64,000 bases of DNA from an uncultured Elusimicrobia bacterium (GCA_903867985.1 CAIPTO010000106.1:30373-94372), one strand, 5' to 3'; positions 9,851 to 62,856 are shown, counted from the stretch's first letter. The notes: generated by a model not told the origin, from the letters alone. A program made the numbers and translations.

Positions 9851-11590
9851 ATGAAAAAGCTTAGAATTTTACTGACTCTCTGTCTGCTGGCCGAACAGTG
9901 CGTTGTGCCGGTGGCGGTGGTCTTCGCGCAGGACTCCCAAACTCTGGAATCTGACAAGAATTTTACGCAGGATCTTCAGGGACCTTCCTCCGAGGATGGC
10001 GGACCCATACTGAATCACCCGGCCCAGGAGAATCCTCCACCCCAGACAATGCCTCAAGCCTCCACTCCCGGCGCTCCCATAGAATCCGTGCAGATCGGTG
10101 CTGTTCCCCGGGAGGCCCCAATGTACGAGGAGGCTGAAGCTATATCGCCTCTTGACCGCAAGATAGGCCCCATTAGACTTAAGGGAGCCCCCCTGTCTAC
10201 ATTCCTGGACGTGGTATCGGCGCAATCTAAGGTGAATTTCATCATCACCGAAGGTCTTGAAGCCAAAACTATCACCGTTTTTTTACGGAAGACTACTGTG
10301 CGCGAAGCTTTGGAACTTCTGCTGCGAGTCAAGGGGCTGACCTACCAGCGTATAGGCAAAAGTAACACCTATGTAGTCCAGAAACGTTCCGCCGACATGC
10401 CTAATCTGATCACCAAAATATATGTGCTGAATTATATCCCGCTGATCGCGATCGGCTCCGTGGGCGAGGACATGGCGGCCGTCACTTCCCAGGATGTGTC
10501 ATCCTCGGGCGGTTTGTCCTCGGGTGGTTCATCCTCTGGCGGATCGTCCTCGGGCGGCTCATCTTCCGGCGGCAGTCAGCAGAATACCGCCAAGGAAGAA
10601 GATAAGGGTATAGCAATCATGAGTATTATCAGAAGCGTCCTTTCAAAGAAGTACGGCAAGATGGCTAATGATCCCAGAACTAATACTCTCATAATTACCG
10701 ATGTGCCGGAAGTTTTTCCGCAAGTCGAGCAGATTATAGCCGAACTTGATAAAAAAGCTCCCCAGATACTCATAGAGGCTCAGATAGTAGAGATCAACAC
10801 GGATCGCCTTAACGAGCTTGGCATAGAATGGGGCGGCGCACGGGGCGAGATGGCGTATTTCGCCGGCCCCGCCCGCGTGACCGACTACGGCTTAAGACCC
10901 GGATTTTTTTCCGGCGACCAGTGGAAGAATTTCTTTCCGAAATCGGTTGAGACCGTGGGAACACCTCCCTCAGCCGGCAGCACGATCGACCCGGTATTCA
11001 GTACCGGGCAACTCAGTCCTAAAGGCGTATTCTACGGCATATTCAGTCTTGCGCAGCTGCAGGCCACCTTCCGGGCCCTTATTTCGCGGGGAGAGGCGCG
11101 GTACCTCGGCAAGCCCAGGATCGTAGCCATGAACAACAAGACTGCCGTTGTGACGGTTTCCAGAGATGCGGCCGTAGGGCAGAGCTCCCAGGTCTCCTCC
11201 GCCGGAGGCTCAACGGGGTCGTCCACGACCGGGGCGGAAAGACGCAGGGTAGGCTTGACCCTTAAGGTCACGCCGCAGGTCAACAAGGAAGGTTATATTA
11301 CGCTGGTTGTCATGCCCTCTTACTCCGACCTGGTCGCTTCCGCTGTCACAACCACAGGCTCCACGATATACGACCCGGTAAGCCGCGGCGCGTCCACTAT
11401 GGTCAGGGTAAAGAACGGACAAACCGTTGTGATCGGCGGCATGCTTTCTTCCACTGAGACCAAGAGCGTGAAAAAAGTGCCGTTGTTGGGTTATATTCCG
11501 ATCATAGGCTGGCTGTTCACCAGCGTCAGTTCCAGGCGCACGAATACCGATCTGGTGATTTTTGTGACACCTACTATTTTGGTAGACTAA
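9851..11590 (+). CDS. Secretin (PilQ/GspD family outer-membrane channel)
   Basis: It has a signal peptide and the secretin N-domain motif NTLIITDVPEVFPQVEQIIAELD. The C-terminal secretin core is VPLLGYIPIIGWLFTS...TDLVIFVTPTIL. Confidence 0.85.
   Translation: MKKLRILLTLCLLAEQCVVPVAVVFAQDSQTLESDKNFTQDLQGPSSEDGGPILNHPAQENPPPQTMPQASTPGAPIESVQIGAVPREAPMYEEAEAISPLDRKIGPIRLKGAPLSTFLDVVSAQSKVNFIITEGLEAKTITVFLRKTTVREALELLLRVKGLTYQRIGKSNTYVVQKRSADMPNLITKIYVLNYIPLIAIGSVGEDMAAVTSQDVSSSGGLSSGGSSSGGSSSGGSSSGGSQQNTAKEEDKGIAIMSIIRSVLSKKYGKMANDPRTNTLIITDVPEVFPQVEQIIAELDKKAPQILIEAQIVEINTDRLNELGIEWGGARGEMAYFAGPARVTDYGLRPGFFSGDQWKNFFPKSVETVGTPPSAGSTIDPVFSTGQLSPKGVFYGIFSLAQLQATFRALISRGEARYLGKPRIVAMNNKTAVVTVSRDAAVGQSSQVSSAGGSTGSSTTGAERRRVGLTLKVTPQVNKEGYITLVVMPSYSDLVASAVTTTGSTIYDPVSRGASTMVRVKNGQTVVIGGMLSSTETKSVKKVPLLGYIPIIGWLFTSVSSRRTNTDLVIFVTPTILVD
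10499..10573 (+). repeat. Five 15-nt in-frame repeats encoding (S/L)SSGG within the secretin
   Basis: The five units are tcatcctcgggcggt, ttgtcctcgggtggt, tcatcctctggcgga, tcgtcctcgggcggc and tcatcttccggcggc. Confidence 0.85.
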
Positions 11591-11596
11591 TAATGC

Positions 11597-11671
11597 AGTG
11601 ACGAGTGGATAGTGGCTGGTGGACAGTAGTGGATAGTTACAGAACGTAGATCTTTTATTCACTGACCAGTG
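11597..11671 (+). repeat. Heptad array (AGTGNNN)x5 starting 7 nt after the secretin stop, with a CACTG..CAGTG partner
   Basis: AGTG at 11597, 11604 and 11611, GGTG at 11618 and AGTA at 11625 give an exact 7-nt period. CACTGACCAGTG lies at 11660-11671. Confidence 0.6.
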
Positions 11672-11683
11672 TTATTTAATATT

Positions 11684-13429
11684 ATGGCTCGAAAAAGACT
11701 CGGCGAAATAATGGTGGAAGCGGGCTGGATAACCGAAGACCAGCTTGTTAAGGCGCTCAAATTCCAGCAGCAGAATCCGTGCCTTATCGGCGAAGCTATC
11801 GTAAAAATGCACTTTTCCAACGAGGAGAAGGTTGCGATGGCTCTGTCTAAACAATTAGGCGTCCCTTACGCTTCCAGAGAAAATCAGATACTTAACCCTG
11901 AAAAGGGCCAGACCCTTGAAAAGATGATATCTGAGAAATTCGCGCGAGAGCACGTGGTGATACCGCTTTTTATCGAGAACAATGTTCTGGCCGCCGCCAT
12001 GACGGATCCGGCCAACATCCTGCTTGTCGACAATATAAGGCTGGTCACCGGGATGGATGTGCAGCCTTTCATCGCCACTAAAGCGCAGATCCTTAAAGTG
12101 ATAGATTCTTTCTACCAGGGCGCCACCGACCTCATTGACAGGGTTATGGATGCTGCGGGCCAGAGCAAGGGAGAGACCTCCGACAGCGACGTTATTACTG
12201 CTGACGGAAAGCTTGACCTTGACAAGGTCATCATGGGGGAGTCCAAAGGCGCGCAATCTATAAAACTGGTCAACGCTATATTAAAACAGGCAATATCCGA
12301 ACGGAGCAGCGATATTCATCTCGAAAAATTTGATGAAAAAGTCTCTCTTCGATTCCGTATAGACGGTGTGCTCTACGAACGCAGCGCCCCTCCAGGCGAT
12401 CTGGTGGACGCCCTGATCTCCCGCGTTAAGATACTTTCAAAATTGGATGTTTCAGAGCGCCGGCTACCGCAGGACGGCAGTTATTCCATAAAATATCAGA
12501 ACCGGATCATTGAAATTCGCGTATCGGTCTGCCCGACTGTCTTCGGGGAAAAGATGGTTCAGCGTCTTCTCGATAAAGGCGCCGTGGAACTTAATATCGA
12601 AAAACTCGGCTTTGAACCCCGGCAAAGCGCCGACTTCCTGAAGGCTGCGTCCGCGCCGCACGGCCTTATCTTCCTCACCGGACCCACGGGCTCCGGTAAG
12701 ACTACTACTCTGAACTCTGTTCTCAATACCATAAAATCCCCGGAACTCAATATCATGACTCTGGAAGATCCCGTGGAAATAAAGATGGAGGGAATAAGTC
12801 AGGTACAAATAAAACCGCAGATCGGCCTTACTTTTGCCACAGGGCTGCGCTCTTTCCTGCGTCAGGACCCCGATGTCATCCTGGTCGGCGAGGTCCGCGA
12901 TGATGAAACAGCTGAAGCCTGTCTTAAAGCCGCCATGACAGGCCATCTTGTGCTTTCCACGCTGCATACCAATAGCGCTCTTGAGGCGATTCCCAGATTG
13001 ATCGACATGGGTATTGAAAACTACCTTTTAGCCAGCACGCTGCTCTGCCTGGCGGCCCAACGACTGGTGCGGCAGCTTTGCCCTGAATGCAAGCAGCCGT
13101 ACAGACCGCCTAAAGAGGAAATCGATCAGATGATGGCTGAATGTCTGCTGAACCCGCTCCCCGATCCTGCAAGGCTGATGTTCTACAAACCCAAAGGATG
13201 CCCCAAATGCTCAAATATGGGCTATAAGGGCCGCAAGGCCATCTATGAGGTCTATTTCAACACCGAGGAAATGAAGCGAATCATTTTCAAGGACGCTGAT
13301 ATCCACAAACTGGACGAAGCCGCAAGAAAAAGCGGAGCCTGGGGGCTCAGGGCCAGCGGTTGGCGCAAGGTTATTGCCGGTCTCACCTCCGTGGATGAGA
13401 TGCTTTCGGTAACGGTTACTGAACGCTGA
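11684..13429 (+). CDS. pilB: Type IV pilus / T2SS assembly ATPase (PilB/GspE family)
   Basis: Walker A is GPTGSGKTTT. The Asp/His boxes include LRQDPDVILVGEVRD and LVLSTLHTN. The Zn motif is CPECKQ...CPKC, and the N-terminus has a T2SSE_N/MshEN-like domain. ATG at 11684 is preferred to GTG at 11669. Confidence 0.9.
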   Translation: MARKRLGEIMVEAGWITEDQLVKALKFQQQNPCLIGEAIVKMHFSNEEKVAMALSKQLGVPYASRENQILNPEKGQTLEKMISEKFAREHVVIPLFIENNVLAAAMTDPANILLVDNIRLVTGMDVQPFIATKAQILKVIDSFYQGATDLIDRVMDAAGQSKGETSDSDVITADGKLDLDKVIMGESKGAQSIKLVNAILKQAISERSSDIHLEKFDEKVSLRFRIDGVLYERSAPPGDLVDALISRVKILSKLDVSERRLPQDGSYSIKYQNRIIEIRVSVCPTVFGEKMVQRLLDKGAVELNIEKLGFEPRQSADFLKAASAPHGLIFLTGPTGSGKTTTLNSVLNTIKSPELNIMTLEDPVEIKMEGISQVQIKPQIGLTFATGLRSFLRQDPDVILVGEVRDDETAEACLKAAMTGHLVLSTLHTNSALEAIPRLIDMGIENYLLASTLLCLAAQRLVRQLCPECKQPYRPPKEEIDQMMAECLLNPLPDPARLMFYKPKGCPKCSNMGYKGRKAIYEVYFNTEEMKRIIFKDADIHKLDEAARKSGAWGLRASGWRKVIAGLTSVDEMLSVTVTER

Positions 13430-17876: not shown

Positions 17877-18056
17877 TCCTGCAGTTCAAGGTATATCCCA
17901 TTGATAAAATCAGGGAACAGAATTATTCTGCAGGATTCCCCGCAAAGCGGGCGGAGGGACCAGCGCTATGCGCGCCTGGCCCGACGAGGTGTATGCCTCC
18001 CGAATGGGCGCCCGCTATGCGGGCGGAAAACTTCAACTGAAGTTTTCAGGTTAATC
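17867..18056 (+). repeat. ~190-nt structured repeat, copy A (candidate ncRNA or MITE-like element)
   Basis: Termini TTAACCTGAA (17867-17876) and TTCAGGTTAA (18045-18054) are complementary. The inner stem is ATCCTGCAG/CTGCAGGAT. There are several GC hairpins with TAT loops. It is about 80 percent identical by eye to the reverse complement of 43301-43487. Confidence 0.7.
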
Positions 18057-20867
18057 CTTACTTTTTGTTCCCAGGTGTTCTTTAAGGTAAAAGCCGGTGT
18101 GAGAGCCGGGCACTTTGACGATGCCCGGCGTATCGCCGGCGTAAATGAGTTCTCCGCCGGCAGAGCCCCCGTCGGCGCCAAGTTCGATTATCCAGTCAGA
18201 AGATGCTATTACGTCAAGATTATGCTCTATGACCAGAACAGTGTTTCCTTGGTCGGCAAGCCGGTGAAGTACTTTCAGCAGTTTTTCCACATCGGCGAAA
18301 TGGAGACCGGTCGTGGGCTCGTCGAGGATGAAAAGCGTACGGCCGGTAGAGCGCTTTGCCAACTGCCCAGCCAGCTTCATGCGCTGTGCTTCTCCTCCCG
18401 AAAGAGTTGTGGCGCTTTGGCCGAGTTTTATGTAGCCCAGTCCCACTTCACGCATGGTTAAAAGCACTTTGGCTATCTGCGGTATCTCTGAGAAATGGAC
18501 GGAAGCCTCGTCGGCCGACATATCCAGGACCTCCGCGATGTTTTTTCCTTTGAATTTAACTTCCAGCGTGTCCTCGTTGAAGCGAAGCCCGTGGCATTCC
18601 TCGCATTTGACATAGATGTCGGGGAGGAACTGCATCTGGATCTTTATAGTCCCGTCGCCCTGACAGGTCTCGCAGCGTCCGCCCTTAACATTAAAAGAAA
18701 AGCGGCCCGGCTCATAGCCTCGGCGCTTGGCTTCAGGGAGGCGGGAGAAGATATCCCGGATGCAGTTGAAGACTCCGGTGTAGGTGGCTGGGTTAGAACG
18801 GGGCGTTCGGCCTATCGGCGACTGGTCGACTATGATGACCTTATCTATATTCTCTTCGCCTTTCATGCTTTTGAAGCGCCCGGGGTTTTCTTTGGAGTTG
18901 TAAAGTTTTTTGGACAGCGCTTTGTATATGATCTCGTATAGCAGGGTGGATTTCCCGGAACCGGACACGCCGCACAGCGTTACAAAAAGGCCGAGGGGAA
19001 TCTTGATGTCTATACCCTTCAGATTAAACTGTTCCGCTTTTATGAATTCCAGCCAGCCTTTATCCGGCTTGCGCAGCGGATGGCTGATAGAGACTTTCTT
19101 GTCGCCCCGCAGGAAAGCGCCTGTTATGGATTTCTTATTCCTGAGTATAGAGGCGAGATTCCCCTGAGCGATGACATGACCGCCGGCAAGTCCGGCGCCC
19201 GGTCCGAGATCCACGATGTGATCCGCGTTGCGGATGACTGCCTCATCATGCTCCACAACAATAAGAGTGTTGCCCAGATCGCGCAGCGACTTGAGAGTTG
19301 TTATAAGTTTGGCGTTATCACGCTGGTGCAACCCGATGGTGGGTTCGTCCAGCACGTAGAGCACGCCGGTCAGGCCGCTGCCTATCTGGGTGGCCAGCTG
19401 TATACGCTGCGCTTCGCCCCCGGATAGAGTTTCCGAGCGGCGGTCAAGCGAAATGTAACCCAGGCCGACATTTGTAAGAAAACTTAAGCGGGCATTTATT
19501 TCTTTGAGTATCAGTCTGGCGATAACGCGGTCTTTTTCACTCAGCGATAATCCGGATATAAACTCCTTAATCTCTGAAATGGGCAGGCTGGAGACCTGGA
19601 CGATGTTTTGACTCCCCACCAGTACATGCAGACCCTCGGGCTTCAGGCGCTGGCCTTTGCAGATACCGCAGGTTACTTCATGCATAAATTTGCGGTAGAT
19701 CTCTTCCTTGACGAAATCAGATTCCGTTTCCGTATACCGGCGCTTGAGGTTTGTAACTACGCCTTCAAACTCCCCGCCCGGTTCGCCGCGCAGGATTATA
19801 TCGCGGGCTTCCTTCGTCAAGTCACGCCAGGGCTTATCCAGGGAAATATTATTTCTTCCGGCCGCATCAATTATCATTTCCATGTAATAGCCAGACCAGG
19901 AGTTCTTCCAGCGGTGAGTGCGGGTAGTGACCGGGTTTGACCAGGCTTCGATCGCCCCGCCGTTGATGGATTTTGAGATGTCGGGGACGACCAGATCCGT
20001 ATCTATTTCAATTTTAACTCCGAGGCCGCCGCATTCCGGGCAGGCGCCGAAAGGGGAATTGAAGGAGAAGAGCCGGGGCTCCAATTCGGGAAAGCTGATG
20101 CCGCACGACGGACAGGCATTCTTCTCGCTGTAAAGGGCGGGGGCTTTGCCCGTGGCGCCGGATTCCACCGCAACCAGCCCGCGCCCCTGGGCCAGGGCCA
20201 GTTCCACAGTTTCCGTGAGCCGCTCTTTTTCACCGTCTCCGGCGGTCATCTCATCCACGAATAGTTCTATATTGTGCTTTACATAACGGTCTAGTTTCGG
20301 AACCGAGTCCAGGTCGAAAATTTTCCCGTCTACGCGGATTTTAATAAATCCGTTTTTTTTAAACTTAGCGAATAATTCCTCATAGGTGCCTTTGCGGCCG
20401 CTGATCAGCGGAGCGAGAATCTTTATTTTTTTACCTGAATATCGCGAGGATATCTCCGCGACTATACCTTGTGCAGACCAGGCCTTTATCGGGCGTCCGC
20501 ATTGCGGACAGAACGGCGATCCGACTTTGGCGTAGAGGAGGCGCAGATAGTCGTAAATCTCGGTAACCGTACCCACGGTGGAACGCGGATTTTTTGAGGG
20601 AGTGTGCTGCTGGATGGCGATGGCAGGCGAAAGGCCCTCTATGGATTCCACGTCAGGCTTTTCCATCTGCTCTAAGAATTGTCTGGCGTAGGCTGACAGA
20701 CTTTCCATGTAGCGGCGCTGTCCTTCAGCGTAGATAGTGTCGAAAGCAAGGCTGGATTTGCCCGATCCCGAGAGTCCGGTCAGCACCACCAGTTTATTCT
20801 TGGGCAACTCTATGGTTATATTTTTAAGGTTGTGCGCTTTCGCGCCGGTTATTTTGATCTTATCCAT
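18051..20867 (-). CDS. uvrA: Excinuclease ABC subunit A
   Basis: 938 aa with two ABC ATPase modules (GLSGSGKSSLAFDT, GVSGSGKSTLL, LSGGEAQR x2) and zinc-finger cysteines. Confidence 0.97.
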   Translation of the reverse strand: MDKIKITGAKAHNLKNITIELPKNKLVVLTGLSGSGKSSLAFDTIYAEGQRRYMESLSAYARQFLEQMEKPDVESIEGLSPAIAIQQHTPSKNPRSTVGTVTEIYDYLRLLYAKVGSPFCPQCGRPIKAWSAQGIVAEISSRYSGKKIKILAPLISGRKGTYEELFAKFKKNGFIKIRVDGKIFDLDSVPKLDRYVKHNIELFVDEMTAGDGEKERLTETVELALAQGRGLVAVESGATGKAPALYSEKNACPSCGISFPELEPRLFSFNSPFGACPECGGLGVKIEIDTDLVVPDISKSINGGAIEAWSNPVTTRTHRWKNSWSGYYMEMIIDAAGRNNISLDKPWRDLTKEARDIILRGEPGGEFEGVVTNLKRRYTETESDFVKEEIYRKFMHEVTCGICKGQRLKPEGLHVLVGSQNIVQVSSLPISEIKEFISGLSLSEKDRVIARLILKEINARLSFLTNVGLGYISLDRRSETLSGGEAQRIQLATQIGSGLTGVLYVLDEPTIGLHQRDNAKLITTLKSLRDLGNTLIVVEHDEAVIRNADHIVDLGPGAGLAGGHVIAQGNLASILRNKKSITGAFLRGDKKVSISHPLRKPDKGWLEFIKAEQFNLKGIDIKIPLGLFVTLCGVSGSGKSTLLYEIIYKALSKKLYNSKENPGRFKSMKGEENIDKVIIVDQSPIGRTPRSNPATYTGVFNCIRDIFSRLPEAKRRGYEPGRFSFNVKGGRCETCQGDGTIKIQMQFLPDIYVKCEECHGLRFNEDTLEVKFKGKNIAEVLDMSADEASVHFSEIPQIAKVLLTMREVGLGYIKLGQSATTLSGGEAQRMKLAGQLAKRSTGRTLFILDEPTTGLHFADVEKLLKVLHRLADQGNTVLVIEHNLDVIASSDWIIELGADGGSAGGELIYAGDTPGIVKVPGSHTGFYLKEHLGTKSKD

Positions 20868-20871
20868 AAGT

Positions 20872-20961
20872 GCAGAAGCAGAGGGGGGGCGAGAAGGGCA
20901 GAGTGAAATGTGAATTTCCTCACTCTCTACCCTAACCCCTAGACCCTGAACCCTCCCTATC
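20872..20961 (-). repeat. Heptad inverted-repeat element, (AGGGTNN)n type, spanning the nadB stop and the nadB-uvrA spacer
   Basis: On the + strand, CTACCCT, AACCCCT, AGACCCT and GAACCCT lie at 20927-20954 with an exact 7-nt period. The core hairpin is AGAGTGA 20900-20906 / TCACTCT 20920-20926. A purine-rich partner arm lies at 20872-20906. Confidence 0.65.
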
Positions 20962-22554
20962 GTATCTGTCCGCTTTCGTGTTCGCAGTGTAAGTTTCTTC
21001 AGTTTGCGGATAGTTGATGTTAAAATGCAGCCCGCGGGATTCCTTACGCTCCGCCGCGGAGCGTATAATGGTTTCTGCCAGACAGGCTATGTTGCGCAAT
21101 TCCAGCAGGTCCCGAGTTAGCAGGAAATCCCAGTAATATTTGGCGATTTCATCCGTTATGATTTTTATGCGGGCTTTGGCGCGCTCCAGGCGCTTATCGC
21201 TGCGAACGATGCCCACATAATTCCACATTAGCGTGCGGACCTCATCCCAGTTATGGGTTATCATTACTGCCTCGTCCGAATGCCGCGCGTTGCCGTAATT
21301 CCACACCTCAGCCCTGGCTGGACTTTTCGCTGTTTTCTTTCCCAAGTTTCCGCATATCGAGTCCGCGGCGCGCCGGGCGAAGACGCATGCTTCAAGGAGG
21401 GAATTTGAAGCCAGACGGTTCGCCCCGTGCAGGCCCGTGTGGGCCACTTCACCCACGGCGTACAGCCCGGGCATGGCGGTCCGTCCCCATTCGTCGGTTT
21501 CTATTCCTCCGCAGAAGAAGTGCGCGGCGGGCACTACGGGTATCGGGTCCCTGGTAATGTCGATGCCGAAGGAAAGACATTTTTTATAAATATTAGGAAA
21601 ACGCTTCTTTACAAACGCGGCCGGCCGGGCAGTGATGTCAAGATACACGCATTCCGCTCCGCTCTTTTTAAGTTCGTTGTCTATCGCGCGGGCCACGATA
21701 TCCCGCGGCGCCAGTTCTTTCCTGACATCGTAGGCCGCCATGAAAGGTTTGCCTTCGGGGTTGCGCAGGATCGCGCCTTCACCGCGCACAGCTTCCGATA
21801 TAAGGAAGGATTTAGCCTTGGGATGGTAAAGGCAGGTCGGGTGGAACTGGACGAATTCCATATTTATAAGCCGGAGCCCCGCCCGATAGGCCATAGCCAT
21901 CCCATCCCCGGTTGCGGTGTCCGGGTTGGAGGTGTAAAGATAGACTTTACCGGCCCCGCCCGAGGCCAGCACCGTTGCCGAAGCCAGGAAGCTGTGTATG
22001 ATGCCAGTATGCTCTTCCAGCGCGTAAGTTCCCCTGGCAACGTTGCGCTCCGGCCTGACCCCGGCCGGACGGGAGTCCAGTATCAGGTCCACTGCGGCGT
22101 GATCCTCGTAAAAACGGATTTTTTTATTCGCCCGGCATACCCGCAGCAGGGTTGATTCGATCTCGTGCCCGGTGGAGTCGGCGGCATGGAGTATACGCCG
22201 TCTGGAATGTCCGCCTTCCAGGCCGAGTTCAAAATCTGAGCCGTTCTTGGTAAAACACACTCCTAATTCCACCAGTTCCTTCACTCTTTCGGGGCCTTCG
22301 CGCACGGCAATTTCCACTATGTGAAGGTCGGCCAGGCCGGAACCGGTTTTTAAGGTGTCGTTGATATGAAGAATTGCGGCATCATCTTTGCCGGTTACGG
22401 CCGCGATCCCTCCTTGGGCAAGATCGGTGTTGGATACCTGGGCCCCGCGTTTCGAGACAAGGCTTACCGTGCCCGAGCGGGAAAGCCTATGGGCTGTCAG
22501 CAGGCCGGCCAGACCGGTTCCGATAACCAGAAAATCCGATTTATAAATGGACAT
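20932..22554 (-). CDS. nadB: L-aspartate oxidase
   Basis: The N-terminal FAD motif is DFLVIGTGLAGL. Flavoprotein motifs of the succinate dehydrogenase/fumarate reductase family include HPTCLYHP, RGEGAILRN and GLYAVGEVAHTGLHGANRLASNSLLE. Confidence 0.92.
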   Translation of the reverse strand: MSIYKSDFLVIGTGLAGLLTAHRLSRSGTVSLVSKRGAQVSNTDLAQGGIAAVTGKDDAAILHINDTLKTGSGLADLHIVEIAVREGPERVKELVELGVCFTKNGSDFELGLEGGHSRRRILHAADSTGHEIESTLLRVCRANKKIRFYEDHAAVDLILDSRPAGVRPERNVARGTYALEEHTGIIHSFLASATVLASGGAGKVYLYTSNPDTATGDGMAMAYRAGLRLINMEFVQFHPTCLYHPKAKSFLISEAVRGEGAILRNPEGKPFMAAYDVRKELAPRDIVARAIDNELKKSGAECVYLDITARPAAFVKKRFPNIYKKCLSFGIDITRDPIPVVPAAHFFCGGIETDEWGRTAMPGLYAVGEVAHTGLHGANRLASNSLLEACVFARRAADSICGNLGKKTAKSPARAEVWNYGNARHSDEAVMITHNWDEVRTLMWNYVGIVRSDKRLERAKARIKIITDEIAKYYWDFLLTRDLLELRNIACLAETIIRSAAERKESRGLHFNINYPQTEETYTANTKADRYDREGSGSRG

Positions 22555-34755: not shown

Positions 34756-34780
34756 TGGAATGCCCTTATTGCAAGTTCAA

Positions 34781-34848
34781 AGGATTAAATACAGAGGATT
34801 AAGAACTGATCTTTCGCCGACCGCTTAATCCTTACGACTTATCGCTTA
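34781..34848 (-). repeat. Heptad inverted-repeat element, TAAG type, in the kdsB-pyrG spacer
   Basis: On the + strand, CCGCTTA, ATCCTTA, CGACTTA and TCGCTTA lie at 34821-34848 with an exact 7-nt period. The last TTA is the kdsB stop codon. The partner units are AAAGGATTAAATAC and AGAGGATTAAGAAC at 34779-34806. The 9-bp stem is AGGATTAAG/CTTAATCCT. Confidence 0.7.
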
Positions 34849-51674: not shown

Positions 51675-51699
51675 AGTTCAGGGAGTAATGATCAAGGAT

Positions 51700-51793
51700 T
51701 AAGCACTAAGGATTAAGTGATAAGAATTAATTTTTTTACCTATGTCTTACGACTTACAGCTTACACCTTATAATTTATCCTTATCACTTAATC
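51700..51793 (-). repeat. Heptad inverted-repeat element, TAAG type, filling the DUF374-waaA spacer
   Basis: On the + strand, TAAG lies at 51700, 51707, 51714 and 51721 (TAAT at 51728). CTTA lies at 51746, 51753, 51760, 51767, 51780 and 51787. The 14-nt perfect complement is 51711-51724 / 51780-51793, which overlaps the TGA stop at 51784-51786. Confidence 0.75.
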
Positions 51794-61444: not shown

Positions 61445-61459
61445 AAAAGATTTTATGTC

Positions 61460-61540
61460 AGGGTATAGAGGGGTGAGGGTCCAGGGTTTAGGAACCCTGT
61501 ATTTGCCGCGCTATACCCTCCACCCTGATCCCTATACCCC
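61460..61540 (-). repeat. Heptad inverted-repeat element, AGGGT type, in the yebC-ruvC spacer
   Basis: On the + strand, ATACCCT, CCACCCT, GATCCCT and ATACCCC lie at 61513-61540 with an exact 7-nt period. The G-rich partner is 61460-61493. Nested stems are GGGTATAG (61461-68) / CTATACCC (61532-39) and CAGGGTT (61482-88) / AACCCTG (61493-99). Confidence 0.7.
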
Positions 61541-61544
61541 GGTT

Positions 61545-62297
61545 TTATTCCAACTTGGATAGAATGGAGTCCGGAATGTCAAAATTGGAATGGACCTTCT
61601 GAACATCATCATGGTCCTCGAGATTGCTCATCAGGTTGACAACCTGCTGCGCCTTATCTTCTCCCACTTTGACTTCGTTTTTTGCGAGCATGGTCAACTC
61701 AGCCAGTACGATGGGGATCTTGCGCTCTTCCAGTTTTTTCTTTACGGACTCAAAGTCCGCCGGGGCGGTGATTATCTCATACTCGTCGGATTCGGGTTGC
61801 GACTTGAAATCTTCGGCGCCGATATCGAGGGCCAGCGTCATCAGTTCATCTTCCTTGGCATCGGCTTTTTTTACTGAGATATATCCTTTCGGCTCGAACA
61901 TCCAGGCCACGCTGCCGGTGCTGGCTATATTGCCGCCGGAAACCTCAAAGATCTTTCGTATTTCGCTGAAAACCCGGTTTCGATTGTCGGTGGTGACTTC
62001 CACAAGAACGGCGATGCCGCCCGGGCCGTAGCCCTCATACATTATTTCCTCGTAAGTTACGCCGGGCAATTGGCCGGTTCCCCGCATTATGGCGCGTTTT
62101 ATATTATCAACGGGCATATTGGCCTCTTTGGCGTCTTCCATAGCTTTGCGGAGGCGGGGATTTTCGTCAGGTTTACCGCCGCCTATCTTAGCGGCCATGG
62201 CGATTTCTTTTATGATCCTCGTGAAGACTTTGCCTTTCTTCGCGTCCGTAATGGCTTTTTTGTGTTTTATTCCTGCCCAGTGAGAGTGTCCACCCAT
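61545..62297 (-). CDS. yebC: YebC/PmpR-family transcriptional regulator
   Basis: MGGHSHWAGIKHKKA... and the full-length family pattern are present. Confidence 0.93.
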   Translation of the reverse strand: MGGHSHWAGIKHKKAITDAKKGKVFTRIIKEIAMAAKIGGGKPDENPRLRKAMEDAKEANMPVDNIKRAIMRGTGQLPGVTYEEIMYEGYGPGGIAVLVEVTTDNRNRVFSEIRKIFEVSGGNIASTGSVAWMFEPKGYISVKKADAKEDELMTLALDIGAEDFKSQPESDEYEIITAPADFESVKKKLEERKIPIVLAELTMLAKNEVKVGEDKAQQVVNLMSNLEDHDDVQKVHSNFDIPDSILSKLE

Positions 62298-62573
62298 AAT
62301 CGGCTCCTTTGCCTCCAGAGGGCTGGAGGATCAGAGGACTGGAGGATCGGCCGCAGCGGTTTACATCCTGCTGGTCCAAAATGCTGATAATCCTCAGTCG
62401 TCTCTATCACATCGTTGAAATTCAACTTTTGCACGCGACTCAGTAAATAAATTCTATAATAATATGCGGTCTTTCACAAGACCCGCGGATGGCTTATTAG
62501 TGATCAGCGGCAAGTGTTAAGGCAACCGAAGCATTATCGATGTCCGCGACTAGCCGCTAAACATTTGATTTAT

Positions 62574-62647
62574 GCCCCCTTAGCTCAACTGGATAGAGCA
62601 ACTGCCTTCGGAGCAGTAGGTTAGAGGTTCGAACCCTCTAGGGGGCA
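62574..62647 (+). tRNA. tRNA-Arg (anticodon UCG)
   Basis: Manual cloverleaf. The acceptor is GCCCCCT/AGGGGGC and the D arm is GCTC/GAGC. The anticodon stem is ACTGC/GCAGT with loop CTTCGGA. The T arm is AGAGG-TTCGAAC-CCTCT and the discriminator is A. No CCA is encoded. Confidence 0.9.
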
Positions 62648-62683
62648 CAAAATTTAGGTCATTGCAACTAGATGCAATAACCT

Positions 62684-62787
62684 GCCATTCGCCGTTTGCC
62701 ATAGGCCGTACGCAGAAAGCCCATGCAGAAGGCTCATAAGGGAATCTCTTTAAAAGTTTATGGCTAATGGCATAAGGCAAATGGCGG
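62684..62787 (+). repeat. Heptad inverted-repeat element, GCCRT type, between tRNA-Arg and the next gene
   Basis: GCCAT at 62684, GCCGT at 62691, GCCAT at 62698 and GCCGT at 62705 have a 7-nt period. The inverted partners are ATGGC at 62760, ATGGC at 62767, AAGGC at 62774 and ATGGC at 62781. Confidence 0.7.
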
Positions 62788-62856
62788 ACGTTTACTGTCA
62801 TAATTTCGTAATCTATTCTTAACGTTCCTGAAAGACGGATATAAGACACTATATAT

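Follow-up and report, generated by a model that had tools for sequence, protein, structure and literature searches.

The stretch of DNA analysed here (called the window in the following) comprises 64,000 nucleotides from an uncultured Elusimicrobia bacterium (GCA_903867985.1, CAIPTO010000106.1:30373-94372), and the element in question is an array of G-rich heptanucleotides in which the gene nadB ends, upstream of uvrA. The host belongs to the Elusimicrobiota (Elusimicrobiales) and the G+C content of the window is about 52%. All of the best NadB and YebC homologs come from metagenome-assembled genomes of Elusimicrobia, and YebC is 91% identical to a protein of 'Elusimicrobia bacterium RIFOXYA12_FULL_51_18'. 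Both genes of the junction are located on the minus strand. According to open reading frame (ORF) calling and translation, nadB (20932-22554, including the stop codon) encodes an L-aspartate oxidase of 540 amino acids, which scores 707.9 bits against the NCBIfam model NF006567 (cutoff 629) and aligns over residues 5-518 with the Escherichia coli NadB structure (PDB 1CHU, E = 3.8e-158). The uvrA gene (18051-20867, 938 amino acids) begins with an ATG at 20867, 64 nt past the nadB stop; its product scores 1382 bits against NCBIfam NF001503, and since the profile alignment begins at protein residue 1, this ATG is the true start. The nadB reading frame ends in ...DRYDREGSGSRG, followed by the stop codon TAG at 20934-20932. 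Across the junction, the minus strand reads ...GAC AGA TAC GAT AGG GAG GGT TCA GGG TCT AGG GGT TAG, then GGTAGAGAGTGAGGAAATTCACATTTCACTCTGCCCTTCTCGCCCCCCCTCTGCTTCTGCACTT, then the ATG of uvrA.

An earlier note on this DNA had reported a series of AGGGT-type heptads at this position, and on the minus strand positions 20954 to 20920 indeed read exactly AGGGTTC AGGGTCT AGGGGTT AGGGTAG AGAGTGA. The last of these, counted in that note as the fifth unit, is the 5' half of a small hairpin described below. The G-rich array proper, GGGAGGG TTC AGGGTCT AGGGGTT AGGGTAG (20927-20957, minus strand), contains the nadB TAG, matches the canonical G-quadruplex (G4) motif and would form the 5' arm of a larger stem-loop. 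Four AGGG tetramers follow each other at exactly 7-nt spacing between 20930 and 20954. The pattern of four consecutive AGGGN3 units occurs once in the window while 0.00 occurrences are expected from 100 dinucleotide shuffles, and the pattern of three units occurs four times, at two loci, against 0.01 expected. Tandem Repeats Finder (TRF) detects the array weakly (period 7, 3.7 copies, 73% matches, score 31) because the units share only the AGGG(T) core. Stop triplets at the array are TAG starting at 20959, 20941, 20934 and 20929 and TGA starting at 20922. Only the pair 20941/20934 is spaced by 7 nt and two reading frames are hit, so that the proposal of a TAG every 7 nt in three frames does not hold for this array. 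Strings of the type TTAGGG or TTTAGGG in the array and its relatives resemble telomere repeats, but this reading was rejected since such strings are a coincidence of any heptad with three Gs and nothing else spoke for it.

The array encodes the end of the NadB protein. After the conserved ...VDRY, the reading frame continues for nine codons, DREGSGSRG (20935-20961, minus strand), and the translation agrees with the earlier reading that the repeat supplies the terminal ...EGSGSRG and the stop codon. In a survey of the 120 best NadB homologs, of which 113 could be scored, the conserved C-terminus was ...NT.VDRY, and 85 of the 113 proteins end 0-4 residues after it. A tail of the form EGSG(S/F)R(G/R) is confined to three of the 120, namely the NadB of this species (P0001) and two NadB proteins with 92% identity (P0002, encoded at loci L001-L003, which include GCA_037137395.1, and P0003, encoded at loci L004, L088 and L169), the latter two being 94% identical to each other. 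The tail is thus lineage-specific, as had been suspected; no distant ortholog ending in the same way was found among these homologs, and the derivation of the tail from the repeat stands. Homology to the NCBIfam NadB models and to E. coli NadB stops at residues 518-521 of 540. All differences between the tails of the three species are non-synonymous (R/V/L, S/F and G/R). The last 30 nt of nadB are identical at 26 of 30 positions in L001 and L002 and at 27 of 30 in L004, compared with 0.90-0.91 for the complete gene and 0.78-0.82 for its third positions among the three species. These last 30 nt are conserved about as well as the gene on average and not clearly better than third positions, and therefore give no sign of an additional, functional conservation of the array at the DNA level. 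Judged from these comparisons, the tail looks like an unconstrained extension read out of a repeat and not like a conserved part of the enzyme. The suggestion that the repeat had captured or replaced the native 3' end of nadB is only half right: tail and stop are encoded by the repeat, but the native end of NadB has been extended and not replaced, because the conserved part of the enzyme remains complete as far as DRY and is followed by nine added codons.

Downstream of the array, AGAGTGA (20920-20926, minus strand) and TCACTCT (20900-20906, minus strand) form a fully complementary 7-bp inverted repeat whose arms are separated by 13 nt, and the region contains no other exact one. A C-rich stretch follows before the uvrA ATG; hairpin and stretch are both as previously described. 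This C-rich 3' arm, GCCCTTCTCGCCCCCCCTCTGC (20878-20899, minus strand), can pair imperfectly with the G-rich array. The minimum free energy (MFE) of the complete region with both arms is -38.7 kcal/mol (z = -1.66), a value reached by 15 of 200 shuffled sequences, and the predicted stem takes in the AU of the uvrA AUG at its base. The long stem is therefore plausible as a folding model but not proven. Array, hairpin and C-rich arm had been regarded as a single unit, a view that comparison with relatives does not bear out. The distance from the nadB stop to the uvrA ATG is 64 nt in this species but 12-13 nt in the relatives with P0002 and P0003 (L001, L004). The G-rich array, GGAGGGTTCAGGGTTTAGG(G/C)GTTAGGGT, has been retained at the loci of both relatives, whereas alignment assigns the loop, the 3' half of the inner hairpin and the C-rich arm to a segment of about 52 nt that is specific for this species (20870-20921, minus strand, boundaries approximate). 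The 64-nt spacer is present in all contigs with an identical NadB, which come from four samples (L005 and L006 are 100% identical over the spacer), and thus is not an assembly artefact.

Consensus scans of 20600-21200 detected neither a sigma-70-like promoter nor a T-run terminator. The stem is followed by CTGCTTCTGCACTTATG, which contains no T/U run and therefore does not qualify as part of an intrinsic terminator; a Rho-independent terminator in the spacer was rejected, since no stem-loop with a T run is present on the minus strand, and the stem-loop appears not to be a canonical terminator. At the gathering threshold, Rfam 15 reports only one tRNA in the whole window, and for 20780-21050 it yields, at a permissive E-value, nothing but chance matches to miRNA models (14-18 bits against cutoffs of 60-97). 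An NAD riboswitch or attenuator at the junction thus has no support from Rfam. A LexA/SOS operator in the inner palindrome in front of uvrA was also considered and set aside, since the promoter scan was negative at this site, the two relatives do not have the segment and an operator consensus is not known for the phylum. Because the spacer lacks a promoter and a terminator in these scans and the relatives' spacers are only 12-13 nt long, nadB and uvrA are most simply taken to be co-transcribed. The lack of a Shine-Dalgarno sequence in front of uvrA, which the earlier note had mentioned, is real in so far as no such tetramer is present; it is no evidence for a disruption, however, because about two thirds of the genes here have none. 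Throughout the window, usage is low: GGAG, GAGG or AGGA is found at -21 to -4 in 13 of 41 ORFs with an ATG start, with a background of 12.5%.

The nadB array is not a singular case. We searched for self-similar stretches with a period of 7 (at least 14 of 21 matches), compared them with other lags that are not multiples of 3 and used 1.24 Mb of NadB loci from other phyla as negative control. These came from genome and metagenome collections, which yielded mainly distant NadB loci; L007, L087 and L088 were the informative ones among the loci retrieved there. The window contains 10 arrays with lag 7, compared with 0, 1, 0 and 1 for lags 5, 8, 10 and 11, and close relatives (41 kb) contain 11, compared with 0-4 for the same lags. 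In the other phyla, lag 7 yields 98 arrays and the other lags 62-93. Six of the 10 arrays in the window are intergenic. An excess of period 7 over other periods, mostly in intergenic regions, is thus present in this clade and not in the other phyla.

Six intergenic heptad elements were found in the window, five of them with inverted paired arms; the abundance of heptads was judged on this window of about 64 kb and about 100 kb of relatives. Element A (11591-11668, AGTGG core) lies in the spacer between the genes for a secretin and the ATPase of a type II secretion system. A GTG start called mechanically at 11669 falls within it, and the ATG at 11685, also conserved in L169, is probably the true start. 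Element B (20870-20960, AGGGT core) is the nadB-uvrA element. Element C (34756-34845, GGATTAA core) is located between kdsB and pyrG, and element D (51675-51783, TAAGGAT core) between a DUF374 gene and the Kdo transferase gene waaA. The latter is a TAAG/GGATTAA palindrome, whose stop-proximal sense arm has a TAA every 7 nt, which amounts to eight stop triplets distributed over all three frames. Element E (61459-61540, AGGGT core), between yebC and ruvC, reads GGGGTAT AGGGATC AGGGTGG AGGGTAT ... ACCCTGG ACCCTCA CCCCTCT ATACCCT on the sense (minus) strand and is predicted to fold with -43.6 kcal/mol (z = -4.3 on the sense strand). Element F (62683-62790, ATGGC core) is an ATGGC/GCCAT palindrome directly downstream of tRNA-Arg(TCG) (62574-62648), with about -53 kcal/mol including the adjacent hairpin. 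Loci of the AGGG type are found twice in the 64 kb (at 20.9 kb and 61.5 kb) and once in the related locus L087.

The arrays differ between relatives in unit number as well as in core sequence. Element A consists of six units in the window and of four in L169 (20714-20823), and the L169 ortholog of element C (437-515) lacks one 7-nt unit. In addition, the two versions of element C show paired changes in both arms, GGATTAAG/CTTAATCC here and TGATCAAA/GTTGATCC in L169 (ATTAA/TTAAT versus ATCAA/TTGAT), which suggests that the hairpin has been maintained or that the arms have been homogenised. For the nadB array itself the number of units is equal in all three species and no gain or loss was seen. 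At the nadB-uvrA junction of further relatives other sequences are present. L167 (85% NadB identity) has GGCGGTG ATCAGTG ACCAGTG GTGAGTG ... CACTGAT CACTATC, with NadB ending in GGDQ; L087 (80%) has AACCGGT AATCAGT GGCCGGT AACCGGT ... ACCGGTT ACTGATT and the tail SGNR; L168 (84%) has units resembling GCGNAAA and the tail GVTVKRKA. A plain GC hairpin is found in L007, and in L009 (67%) NadB ends with DRYQ in front of a 9-nt spacer. The yebC-ruvC junction carries a TAAG-type heptad palindrome in L171 (92% YebC identity), compared with the AGGG type here, and a non-heptad hairpin in L170 (91%). In L087 (2950-3000 and 7493-7540), GAATCCG is repeated five times directly upstream of the nadB ATG and an AAAGGAT-type array encodes the last UvrA codons, and heptad arrays therefore overlap gene starts and gene ends in this clade. 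The array at the nadB end is no one-off capture but one copy of a clade-wide class, and CAGTG, CCGGT and GCGNAAA arrays encode other tails at the same junction. As far as the sequences tell, the NadB tail is one instance of a general pattern, in which a heptad array in the spacer supplies the last codons and the stop.

Our favoured interpretation, to which we assign a probability of roughly 0.55, is that the nadB array is one copy of a clade-wide set of degenerate heptanucleotide arrays that originated by slippage and plays a role as an intercistronic RNA stem-loop. Its identity as a member of the heptad-repeat class is much firmer than the role at the RNA level. In this Elusimicrobiales lineage, arrays of this kind (here four to five units of AGGGTNN on the sense strand) occupy short spacers between genes that run in the same direction, and replication slippage of 7-nt units, seeded by a stop codon or within a spacer, would both create and alter them. 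Loss of a stop codon or expansion of an array would let an ORF run on into the array up to the next in-frame stop. At the locus studied here the array adjoins the conserved nadB end (...VDRY), with the nadB frame entering it for nine codons and stopping at a TAG formed by a unit junction; since the frame runs into the array, the tail DREGSGSRG and the stop are both by-products of the repeat. In this species alone, about 52 nt would pair with the G-rich array, resulting in an imperfect stem-loop of about 30 bp that fills the 64-nt spacer and has the last nadB codons as its 5' arm. Such a stem-loop in the nadB-uvrA mRNA could act like repetitive extragenic palindromes (REP) between cistrons, that is, as a barrier for 3' exonucleases and as a decoupler of the cistrons. 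Ribosomes finishing nadB might open the stem-loop, and initiation at uvrA would then be tied to the translation of nadB.

Several observations weigh against this interpretation. The intercistronic function of the stem-loop is proposed by analogy, the long stem-loop is not significant by itself (z = -1.66) and there is no orthologous right arm for a covariation test. Synonymous sites, at which the three species are almost equally far apart, do not polarise the change of about 52 nt. The spacers of L167, L168, L087 and L007 show no significant alignment to the window: the best score, 17 for L168, is matched by 31 of 300 shuffled sequences, and the 8-mer CTCGCCCC that the window shares with L168 was accordingly rejected as a sign of homology. 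Furthermore, the units of the array are degenerate, with AGGG(T) alone in common, a state more in keeping with an array that is old or constrained than with slippage still in progress. The region does not differ between three assemblies of this species made independently, and the array is accordingly not hypervariable.

Among the alternatives, an insertion survives best, although we regard it as unlikely. A mobile palindrome similar to a MITE (miniature inverted-repeat transposable element) or a REP sequence might have entered a spacer of 12-13 nt, or the array might be one half of such an element, with the transposase encoded elsewhere in the genome. The clean presence or absence of about 52 nt between close species would agree with an insertion, as would the occurrence of different heptad palindromes at the same junctions and of the same cores at non-orthologous sites. 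But no second copy of the segment was found in the 64-kb window or in the 169 loci compared with it (about 1.4 Mb, or 1.48 Mb in all when the window is counted), a search that covered a small fraction of this genome, and searches with blastn-short using the 64-nt and 95-nt regions returned only contigs of the same strain and the orthologous array. Neither a target-site duplication nor flanking terminal inverted repeats were detected at the boundaries of the 52-nt indel, and no transposase family is among the Pfam matches recorded for the neighbourhood genes. Moreover, the arrays differ by whole 7-nt units, as slippage predicts. On the sequence covered, identification as a MITE was therefore rejected, the only exact inverted repeat being the internal 7-mer.

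It might also be possible, with a low probability, that the array is a G4 regulatory element at the nadB stop and upstream of uvrA, influencing termination, translation or the start of uvrA translation. The G4 would be built from four to six sense-strand G-tracts, either in the mRNA or in the non-template DNA strand, and in this species the C-rich arm would offer a competing hairpin and thereby a switch between G4 and hairpin. A regular expression scan identified GGGAGGGTTCAGGGTCTAGGGG at 20957-20936 as a canonical G4 motif (at least four G-tracts, loops of 1-7 nt). For the left arm alone a G4 is predicted (-14.9 versus -1.4 kcal/mol), in L004, which lacks the C-rich arm, a G4 is marginally the MFE structure (-11.8 versus -10.6 kcal/mol), and the array fits a class of repeats that prefers four units and for which G4 formation by consensus oligonucleotides has been observed in vitro (PMC4692102). 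Yet with G4 energies switched on, the complete region of this species is still predicted to prefer the hairpin (-38.7 kcal/mol), and L001 and L002 carry GGCG instead of GGGG in one tract and have no predicted G4. G4 motifs are not enriched in the window (four observed, 2.6 expected). Most arrays of the same class in the clade (TAAG, AGTG, ATGGC and CCGGT) are unable to form G4, and G4 is therefore not the common denominator of the class.

A more far-reaching idea, which we consider improbable, is that the heptad arrays constitute a distinct system of intercistronic hairpins with period 7 and interchangeable 4-nt cores, which is actively generated or exchanged and provides stops in three frames. 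A templated or mobile mechanism may copy one arm to the other and swap cores at the same junction. Hints in this direction are the swapped cores at orthologous junctions of relatives with 91-92% identity and the paired changes in both arms of element C. A third is an excess of stop triplets on the sense strand: 23 heptad arrays from the window, L087, L167 and L171 contain 64 stop triplets, compared with 45.2 +/- 4.7 in mononucleotide shuffles, none of 500 of which reaches 64, and 10 of the 23 have stops in all three frames. This enrichment is a hint only, since the arrays were picked post hoc and repeated units are not independent. If such a system existed, stop-containing units with a period coprime to 3 would put stops in three frames at operon junctions, which would set translational coupling and routinely make new C-terminal tails (NadB here, UvrA in L087).

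Selection for the tail as a functional C-terminal addition to NadB, such as a flexible Gly/Ser linker or a tag for degradation or interaction, with the repetitive DNA being incidental, is very unlikely: the three species keep the length of 540 amino acids, the stop position and the EGSG core, but each substitution in the tail (R/V/L, S/F, G/R) changes the amino acid, no other homolog in the survey has the tail, it lies beyond the alignable fold, and other relatives have unrelated tails from other heptads. That similar heptamers happen to follow one another in the G-rich end of a gene, without biological meaning, an explanation for which the low TRF score and the degenerate units could be cited, has next to no probability and is refuted by the shuffle counts (0.00 and 0.01 expected for the patterns of four and three units) and the specific enrichment of period-7 arrays in this clade, with the array also being kept in two other species.

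The array adds an example, from a new phylum and beside several non-G cores, to a type of bacterial heptanucleotide repeat that is already known. The closest known case are the G4-type GGGNATC heptamers of Xanthomonas and Nostoc, together with the cyanobacterial heptanucleotide repeats. Xanthomonas and Nostoc contain repeats of the heptamers GGGAATC and GGGGA(C/T)T (Rehm et al. 2015, PLoS One, PMC4692102), which are enriched in non-coding DNA and preferentially consist of four units. In Xanthomonas, 70-75 inverted heptamer pairs per genome can potentially form stem-loops that compete with G4. The lengths of the repeats vary between species, they form G4 in vitro and have no established function (PMC4692102). 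The nadB array resembles these GGGNATC and GGGGA(C/T)T repeats in the 7-nt unit, the tract of three to four Gs and the number of about four units, the minimum for a G4. In position, too, it agrees with the definition in PMC4692102 (coding strand, aligned ORFs on either side, at most 50 bp from the upstream stop or overlapping it), as nadB and uvrA are both on the minus strand and the array contains the nadB stop. Like the nadB array, the Xanthomonas and Nostoc repeats are often paired with an inverted C-rich copy, giving a stem-loop that competes with G4, and length variation between related species and the lack of a known function are common to them and the present repeats. In contrast to them, the nadB array is found in the Elusimicrobiota, its units are degenerate and are not near-perfect copies of GGGAATC or GGGGAYT, and its right arm is not a clean inverted copy. 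Unlike in Xanthomonas and Nostoc, the G-rich type is one of several cores in this clade that behave alike (AGTG, TAAG, ATGGC, CCGGT).

In many bacteria no other long simple-sequence repeats are as common as heptamers, for which an origin by polymerase slippage has been proposed (Mrazek 2007, as cited in PMC4679880), and three different heptamer families, termed short tandemly repeated repetitive (STRR) sequences, are reported for Calothrix PCC 7601 (ref. 39 in PMC4692102, as cited there). As far as these citing papers describe them, STRR and long simple-sequence repeats have in common with the present arrays that several 7-nt units occur per genome, that the location is mostly intergenic, that the heptamer is favoured and that slippage is proposed. 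The sister elements A (six versus four units) and C (gap of 7 nt) show the change in copy number by whole units that characterises long simple-sequence repeats. The arrays described here are unlike STRR in unit sequence and taxon, and they are short, with 3-7 units, as well as degenerate, and most of them form inverted pairs occupying the spacers between cistrons. STRR sequences also form hairpin arms, as in helix P12 of RNase P.

MacGregor 2015 (PMC4679880) reported direct repeats of the heptamer TAACTGA in marine Beggiatoaceae, some Cyanobacteria and Bacteroidetes. Like our arrays, these repeats (2-6 copies) are short, intergenic and close to gene boundaries, the genomes have few ribosome-binding sites of the canonical kind, and stop triplets are part of the unit; for the TAACTGA repeats a post-transcriptional role has been suggested but not demonstrated (PMC4679880). 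They consist of one dominant unit, are nearly all direct and are located mostly just upstream of start codons (PMC4679880). The present arrays differ in having many cores and inverted pairs, and the nadB copy lies at a stop codon.

For enterobacterial REP sequences, the work on malE-malF and that of Liang, Rudd and Deutscher in 2015 reportedly indicates that an intercistronic REP may protect the upstream mRNA and may hinder ribosomes that terminate adjacent to it. The putative imperfect, GC-rich stem-loop between operon cistrons near the upstream stop would resemble such REP sequences and the bacterial interspersed mosaic elements (BIME) built from them. The nadB element is unlike REP and BIME in its 7-nt periodic arms, and membership in this family was rejected since there is no REP consensus and multiple near-identical copies were not found in the window or the loci compared with it. 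A RAYT (Y1 transposase) gene is not among the Pfam matches recorded for the neighbourhood genes, with 64 kb of the genome covered.

Some further features of the window were recorded. Many neighbouring genes overlap or are less than 15 nt apart. A 15/30-nt tandem repeat (TCCTCGGGCGGTTCG, 4.7 copies, TRF score 79-99) is located at 10499-10572, inside the secretin-like ORF (9851-11590), and presumably is a low-complexity coding repeat. A 16-nt tandem duplication (CAGAGGACTGGAGGAT, 2.1 copies, 94% matches) is found at 62316-62348, directly upstream of the yebC start at 62297.

At the nadB end, a non-coding simple-sequence repeat beside a stop codon supplies a conserved enzyme with a C-terminal tail that is new and lineage-specific, and in sister lineages one and the same gene junction gains different tails from different repeats. 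This calls for caution in annotation and in treating lineage-specific tails as adaptive. Heptanucleotide repeats, including those of the G4 type, have mainly been known from Xanthomonas, cyanobacteria and Beggiatoaceae and are extended here to the uncultured Elusimicrobiota. With its C-rich complementary arm, which the two close relatives do not have, this species together with them would provide a natural pair for studying the effects of repeats on polycistronic mRNA.

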